A DNA stretch of 64,000 bases from the sequence record PQ341120.1; one strand, given 5' to 3'. Numbering within the stretch: position 1 is the first letter of the stretch; each line of letters starts with the position of its first letter. Below the pieces are notes generated by a model. That model was given only the letters and a program-made list of their open reading frames with translations, was not told where the DNA came from and searched no databases. This document shows positions 41,598 to 42,082 of this stretch, in pieces. Source of the DNA: Escherichia phage EAWsc9. The translations under genes and the position numbers were made by a program.

Positions 41598-41627
41598 ATA
41601 ATACTGTACCTACACTTATTTGTACAC
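41598..41627 (-). promoter_or_regulatory. early sigma70-type promoter (-35 GTGTACA, 17 bp, -10 TATTAT) heading the internal-protein array
   Basis: plus ataata 41598-41603 and tgtacac 41621-41627. Confidence 0.45.
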
Positions 41628-42082
41628 TACTTTAAATCCGCCGACCAATTTAATTTTAGCGGTTCTTTATATTCACGGTCTAAAACAACCGGAATCTGGA
41701 CTTCTCCTTTATACGTCAAAGGACCAACATTATAAGACAATGTTATATGAGGAGTATAGTCCGGGAAATCATGTGTTGCGCCAATGGCTCGTGCATACAT
41801 ATGTCTGCAACTAAGATAATCTGAATCCAGTACAAGAACCAGCGTGCTGCCGTCGTCGGTTTTCCATACTTCCAGGTGACCAGAGTTGGCTACTTCGAAA
41901 CTACCGGAAGCAACAACATATGGAATATTTACTCTGGAATAACAAATAGTGGAATGGAATTTTTCGCGAGGAACGGGGTTAGGTACCTTAAGAGAGCGCT
42001 GGAGATTTTCCAGCGCATCAAGAGTTAATTCTGAAAATTTGGCTGCAACATAAAGTCCTTCAGAGACTTCATTTAATGTCAT
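41627..42082 (-). CDS. 57B: 57B-like 2H phosphoesterase (Acb1-type anti-CBASS nuclease candidate)
   Basis: 151 aa; two H-x-[ST]-x motifs (HSTI, HITL) typical of the 2H phosphoesterase fold; sits directly upstream of 57A as T4 57B does. Confidence 0.6.

Follow-up and report, generated by a model that had tools for sequence, protein, structure and literature searches.

Acb1 of phage T4, the product of gene 57B, was discovered by activity-guided fractionation as a cGAMP-degrading enzyme, and deletion of its gene abolishes the activity (Hobbs et al., 2022; PMC9117128). The same study solved structures of the FBB1 enzyme, describing a lid at the C-terminus and the fold of a 2H phosphoesterase, and assigned the functional positions of the T4 protein, namely the catalytic tetrad H44, T46, H113 and T115, the base-stacking aromatics Y12, W74, F107 and W147, the adenine-specific E141 and a lid of residues 145–152. 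The reaction, shown for the T4 and FBB1 enzymes, cuts 3' of adenosine, is metal-independent and proceeds via a cyclic phosphate, H44A/H113A is inactive, and all of the nine further homologues tested cleave both cGAMP and cAAA (PMC9117128). On CBASS-positive hosts, loss of acb1 lowers T4 replication more than 300-fold (PMC9117128). Transposon profiling of T4 also indicated that acb1 supports phage growth on such hosts. The adjacency of Acb1 and ipI is already in print (Hobbs et al., PMC9117128). Here, the corresponding locus of Escherichia phage EAWsc9 (PQ341120.1) is compared with these systems; the window referred to below is the whole stretch of 64,000 nucleotides that was analysed.

The acb1 gene and its conserved residues

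The window comes from a Gaprivervirus, an SP18/VR7-like coliphage. The surrounding 6 kb and 24 kb display 95–98% identity with Gaprivervirus coliphages, among them ECML-359, pEC-M719-6WT.2, UPEC01, SP18 and VR7. The features within the gene are as follows.

41627..42082, minus strand: coding sequence of acb1 (gene 57B), 151 aa and the stop codon (ORF, Pfam PF23474, PDB 7T26, identity to T4 57B)
41945..41956, minus strand: first catalytic motif H43-S-T45-I (HSTI), equal to T4 H44/T46, aligned with T4 and FBB1
41738..41749, minus strand: second catalytic motif H112-I-T114-L (HITL), equal to T4 H113/T115, aligned with T4 and FBB1
41630..41653, minus strand: C-terminal lid, residues 144–151 (T4 145–152), including the stacking W146; lid as defined in PMC9117128

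The reading frame consists of an ATG start, 151 codons and a TAG stop, at exactly the coordinates and with the length that a preliminary description of the locus had given, and lies on the minus strand; its GC content is 41%, against 40% for the window. Plus-strand antisense ORFs of 34–64 aa inside the gene were without support and were discarded.

Pfam model PF23474 (Anti-CBASS protein Acb1) matches residues 8–148 on profile positions 1–143 of 144, with a score of 200.6 bits against a gathering cut-off of 27 (E = 1.2e-59). The best match among solved structures is Acb1 of Erwinia phage FBB1 (7T26/7T27; E = 7.3e-63, residues 9–147), in which 97 of 140 aligned columns (69%) are identical. T4 gp57B (NP_049750.1) is 83% identical over its full length, and the product of Escherichia phage UPEC01 is 100% identical. 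In a translated search, 1,478 of 50,697 phage records contained relatives; about 30 reach 99% identity or above, and 574 lie at 80–90%. No NCBIfam model matches the protein, and its single-sequence AlphaFold2 model (mean pLDDT 37.4) is unusable. A 2H phosphoesterase fold is predicted at the level of sequence, from 69% identity over 139 residues to the crystal structures 7T26/7T27, which have a 2H fold according to their depositors. These alignments identify the gene as the 57B orthologue of a Gaprivervirus, predicted to encode Acb1. The preliminary description had proposed a 2H-phosphoesterase-like protein as an Acb1-type candidate, which is borne out by the PF23474 score, the match to 7T26 (E = 7e-63) and the 83% identity to T4 57B, and had rightly named T4 57B as Acb1 (Hobbs et al., 2022; PMC9117128). 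The locus thus carries an ordinary acb1, with nothing new about it.

It had also been pointed out that the protein carries two H-x-[ST]-x motifs. Both are present, and HSTI does begin at residue 43, but HITL, described as near residue 113, begins at 112, 113 being the T4 number. On its own, the pair of H-x-[ST] motifs is weak evidence and does not exceed chance: the protein contains five histidines, and 15% of its shuffles have at least two such motifs. The significance of the pair comes from homology. The HxT/HxT tetrad H43, T45, H112 and T114 aligns column for column with T4 and FBB1, and it is invariant across an alignment of eight homologues (27–83% identity). Y11, H43, T45, W73, F106, H112, T114, E140 and W146 are each the same as the T4 counterpart, with the numbering shifted by one, so that the published functional residues (tetrad, four stacking aromatics and adenine-reading Glu) are all kept. 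The lid has the same length as that of T4 and shares five of its eight residues, including the Trp, whereas the other three differ (D146N, A148S and D149A in T4 numbering). Alignment of the His motifs to the Acb1 catalytic residues, suggested earlier as a check, sets them on T4 H44/T46 and H113/T115; a failure to align was not found, because all functional positions are identical to T4 and the tetrad is invariant in the eight homologues.

Gene order, expression and the internal-protein array

All genes of the stretch are on the minus strand and follow, as in T4, the transcription order 4-2-3-1-57A-57B and then internal-protein genes, which here are five small genes. The features around acb1 are listed below.

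42318..42995, minus strand: gene 1, dNMP kinase (PHROG 139, E = 3.9e-59)
42082..42318, minus strand: gene 57A, tail-fibre chaperone (PHROG 1002 tail fiber chaperone, E = 5.5e-23)
41598..41626, minus strand: candidate promoter of sigma-70 type, TGTACA-17-TATTAT (consensus scan, 9/12), overlapped by a hairpin
40042..41562, minus strand: five small genes of internal-head-protein type, transcriptionally downstream of acb1 (N-terminal MKT[YF]xEF..E motif)
41230-41562, minus strand: internal-protein gene 1 of 5, 110 aa
40949-41221, minus strand: internal-protein gene 2 of 5, 90 aa
40641-40940, minus strand: internal-protein gene 3 of 5, 99 aa
40353-40595, minus strand: internal-protein gene 4 of 5, 80 aa
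40042-40296, minus strand: internal-protein gene 5 of 5, 84 aa

The stop codon of 57A and the ATG of acb1 overlap as TAATG, and the gene 1 stop overlaps the 57A start. Because the gene pairs 3/1, 1/57A and 57A/57B overlap or abut, acb1 forms the last cistron of a packed 4-2-3-1-57A-57B run, and its translation is coupled to that of 57A and gene 1. The preliminary description had set 57B immediately upstream of 57A; in the direction of transcription acb1 is downstream of it, as seen from the TAATG overlap, and the same holds in T4, where 57A (74407-74649) and 57B (73952-74410), both on the minus strand, have the order of the window. The order 3-1-57A-57B on one strand, typical of Straboviridae, is kept in T4, UPEC01 and five more distant genera, represented by RB16 and by phages infecting Proteus, Acinetobacter, Aeromonas and Vibrio.

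Two further observations concern the neighbourhood. The mechanical ORF of gene 3 (42992-43753, minus strand) starts at TTG, encodes 253 aa and overlaps gene 2; since this product is annotated with 199 aa in UPEC01, translation probably begins at an internal ATG (MSGLYNQ...). Downstream of the internal-protein region, positions 38387-38539 (minus strand) hold two tRNA genes only, Arg-TCT and Met-CAT; the T4 cluster at this place comprises eight tRNAs and two small stable RNAs.

In T4, the cGAMP-degrading activity is present from about 15 min after infection (Hobbs et al., PMC9117128), and a T4 transcriptome compendium classes 57B/acb1 as predominantly middle/late. The acb1 gene studied here is probably expressed in the same manner, middle/late and as the last cistron of 4-2-3-1-57A-57B. 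The late-promoter motif TATAAATA is found ahead of gene 4 in both this phage and T4. It also occurs inside gene 1, here at 42529-42536, 211 nt before 57A, and in T4 363 nt before 57A; because the two positions do not correspond, the copy inside gene 1 is not claimed as a promoter of acb1.

The candidate sigma-70-type promoter lies in the 64-nt gap that follows acb1 and precedes the first internal-protein gene, and it is the only promoter-like site near the array; its hairpin has a folding energy of -13.1 kcal/mol (z = -1.7). Scanning of 38500-45200 with the sigma-70 consensus gave 26 sites versus 19.8 +/- 4.4 in shuffles, which is not above chance, and as such a scan is not informative alone, only the positional comparison with T4 was used. 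The candidate occupies the same place as GTTTAC...TACTAT ahead of T4 ipI, a sequence that we infer to be a promoter; the T4 records examined carry no annotated promoter features. Probably, acb1 and the internal-protein genes have no promoter in common. It had been suggested that acb1 stands behind the same early promoter as the array, and several results disagree with this: acb1 is coupled to 57A and gene 1, the candidate promoter of the array comes after 57B, and T4 57B is classed as middle/late.

For four of the five array genes, the PHROG family that matches is described as an internal head or virion protein. These genes are alike at their N-termini only, and their common 5' ends form the repeat D1. 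In T4, internal proteins are directed to the capsid by motifs of the MKT[YF]xEF..E type. None of the five genes qualified as the ipI orthologue, similarity being limited to approximately the first 10 residues. The preliminary description had spoken of two linked anti-defence modules, which finds no support in the array, as none of its five genes is orthologous to T4 IPI, the sole internal protein with a shown anti-restriction role. Four minus-strand gaps in and around the array (41563-41626, 40596-40640, 40297-40352 and 39985-40041) contain one hairpin each, built on GGGATAA...TTATCCC or GTGTAGG...CCTACAC; a hexamer resembling TATAAT or TATTAT lies within the loop or beside it. Over 31 nt, two of the copies share 90% identity. 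The z-scores of folding, -1.7 to -2.1, are modest. These hairpins presumably resemble the promoter-early stem-loop cassettes of T4-type variable regions.

Proposed function and competing readings

Taken as a whole, the data are very probably best explained by a Gaprivervirus Acb1 that cleaves adenosine-containing cyclic nucleotides and thereby would blunt CBASS. The ORF, the homology, the conservation of the published residues and the synteny are read directly from the DNA; catalysis, substrate range and anti-CBASS phenotype would most likely be those established by the T4 and FBB1 experiments. In the proposed mechanism, host CD-NTases would make adenosine-containing, 3'-5'-linked cyclic di- and trinucleotides (3'3'-cGAMP, cUA, cAAA, cAAG), and after infection the acb1 protein would bind them in a U-shaped pocket over which the C-terminal lid closes. 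Acid-base catalysis by the tetrad H43/T45/H112/T114, independent of metal, is then expected to break the bond 3' of adenosine, with a 2',3'-cyclic phosphate as the intermediate. The signal would thus be linearised and the CBASS effectors would stay off. The substrate range could differ in detail from that of T4, because 25 positions differ, including three of the eight lid residues.

The decoy nucleotides of Panoptes systems, 2'3'-c-di-AMP or cA3, serve to detect Acb1-type enzymes. A shifted or narrowed substrate range of Acb1, for example one sparing these decoys, would let the phage evade CBASS without tripping the Panoptes guard. Such an enzyme would fit the changes from T4, three of them at the eight lid residues and 22 elsewhere; there are other 2H phosphodiesterases of phages whose specificity is narrowed and which evade CBASS and Panoptes alike (PMC13577500), and Acb1 is a liability on Panoptes-positive hosts (PMC13577387). 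Nevertheless, the base-contacting residues and the adenine-reading Glu are all identical to T4, the homologues of Hobbs et al. cleaved cGAMP and cAAA in nine of nine cases (PMC9117128), and Tevenvirinae with intact acb1 (Bas35-37) are Panoptes-sensitive (PMC13577387), which makes this reading very unlikely. The least probable reading, for which there is hardly any room, has RNA ends as the substrate, the protein being an RNA ligase or a 2H enzyme of RNA repair (a cyclic phosphodiesterase or a LigT-type 2'-5' RNA ligase): PHROG 755 carries the label 'RNA ligase', RefSeq gives this name to T4 57B and many orthologues, and residues 91-121 match Pfam 2_5_RNA_ligase2 weakly (E = 0.24), but the LigT/2'-5' RNA ligase model PF13563 scores 11.9 bits, below its cut-off of 27, against 200.6 for the Acb1 model, the 83% identical T4 orthologue is a cGAMP-degrading enzyme by fractionation and deletion, and no RNA-ligase activity is described in the literature covered. 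The label looks like a transfer at the level of the fold.

With cleavage of immune cyclic nucleotides as the preferred reading, the intact acb1 predicts resistance to many CBASS operons and possibly to type III CRISPR systems signalling with cA3. Tevenvirinae with intact acb1 are restricted by Panoptes and escape by acb1 mutation (PMC13577387), and for this reason the present phage is predicted to be Panoptes-sensitive. These CBASS and Panoptes predictions are relevant for phage-therapy or host-range work. The finding makes no open question newly testable; its value lies also in annotation, since many records, PHROGs and RefSeq say 'RNA ligase' or 'hypothetical protein' and should read anti-CBASS Acb1.

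Acb1-like sequences were also seen elsewhere. The 600-aa gp70 of Pseudomonas phage psageK9 (L009:52-1854), possibly a portal, whose gene adjoins terminase, has a C-terminal Acb1-like domain (L009:1501-1821; E = 2e-6, 29% identity) that retains the two HxT motifs intact; this may represent the fusion of a 2H phosphodiesterase domain to a virion protein. The portal of cyanophage Pam3 (8HDS_A, residues 498-586) gives a weak match (E = 0.14). In the RB16 group, 57B is longer (173 aa; RB16 L008:1468-1989), the translated-search match covers residues 6-118 only, and the C-terminal region, at the place of the T4 lid, is divergent and extended in the alignment; judging by this divergence, these proteins could have a different substrate range.

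Comparison with known systems

T4 Acb1 resembles the protein described here in its tetrad, stacking aromatics and adenine-reading Glu, and its gene likewise stands after 57A and gene 1 and before one or more internal-protein genes. The present protein differs in being one residue shorter at the N-terminus and in 25 substitutions, among them D146N, A148S and D149A of the lid. Moreover, 57A and 57B overlap by 4 nt in T4 and by 1 nt (TAATG) here, and 57B is followed by ipI alone in T4 whereas five unrelated internal-protein genes follow it in this phage. Acb1 of FBB1 (7T26, apo; 7T27, with 3'3'-cGAMP) is identical in the HxT/HxT tetrad, the Tyr, the Glu and the lid Trp. It has F and Y at the positions of W73 and F106 of the present protein and T4, both thus staying aromatic, and a one-residue insertion after residue 79.

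More distant systems share the chemistry or the strategy. The divergent phage Acb1 (9Q2G/9Q2Y) and the avian poxvirus cGAMP PDE use the same HxT tetrad chemistry and destroy immune cyclic nucleotides, but they are distant in sequence (E = 7e-4 for 9Q2G), and the lid of the poxvirus enzyme is N-terminal whereas that of Acb1 is C-terminal. Apyc1 and Acb2 follow the same strategy of removing host immune second messengers. However, Apyc1 is an enzyme of the MBL fold that depends on metal and has cyclic mononucleotides as its substrates, Acb2 is not an enzyme but a sponge, and neither is related to the acb1 protein in sequence or fold.
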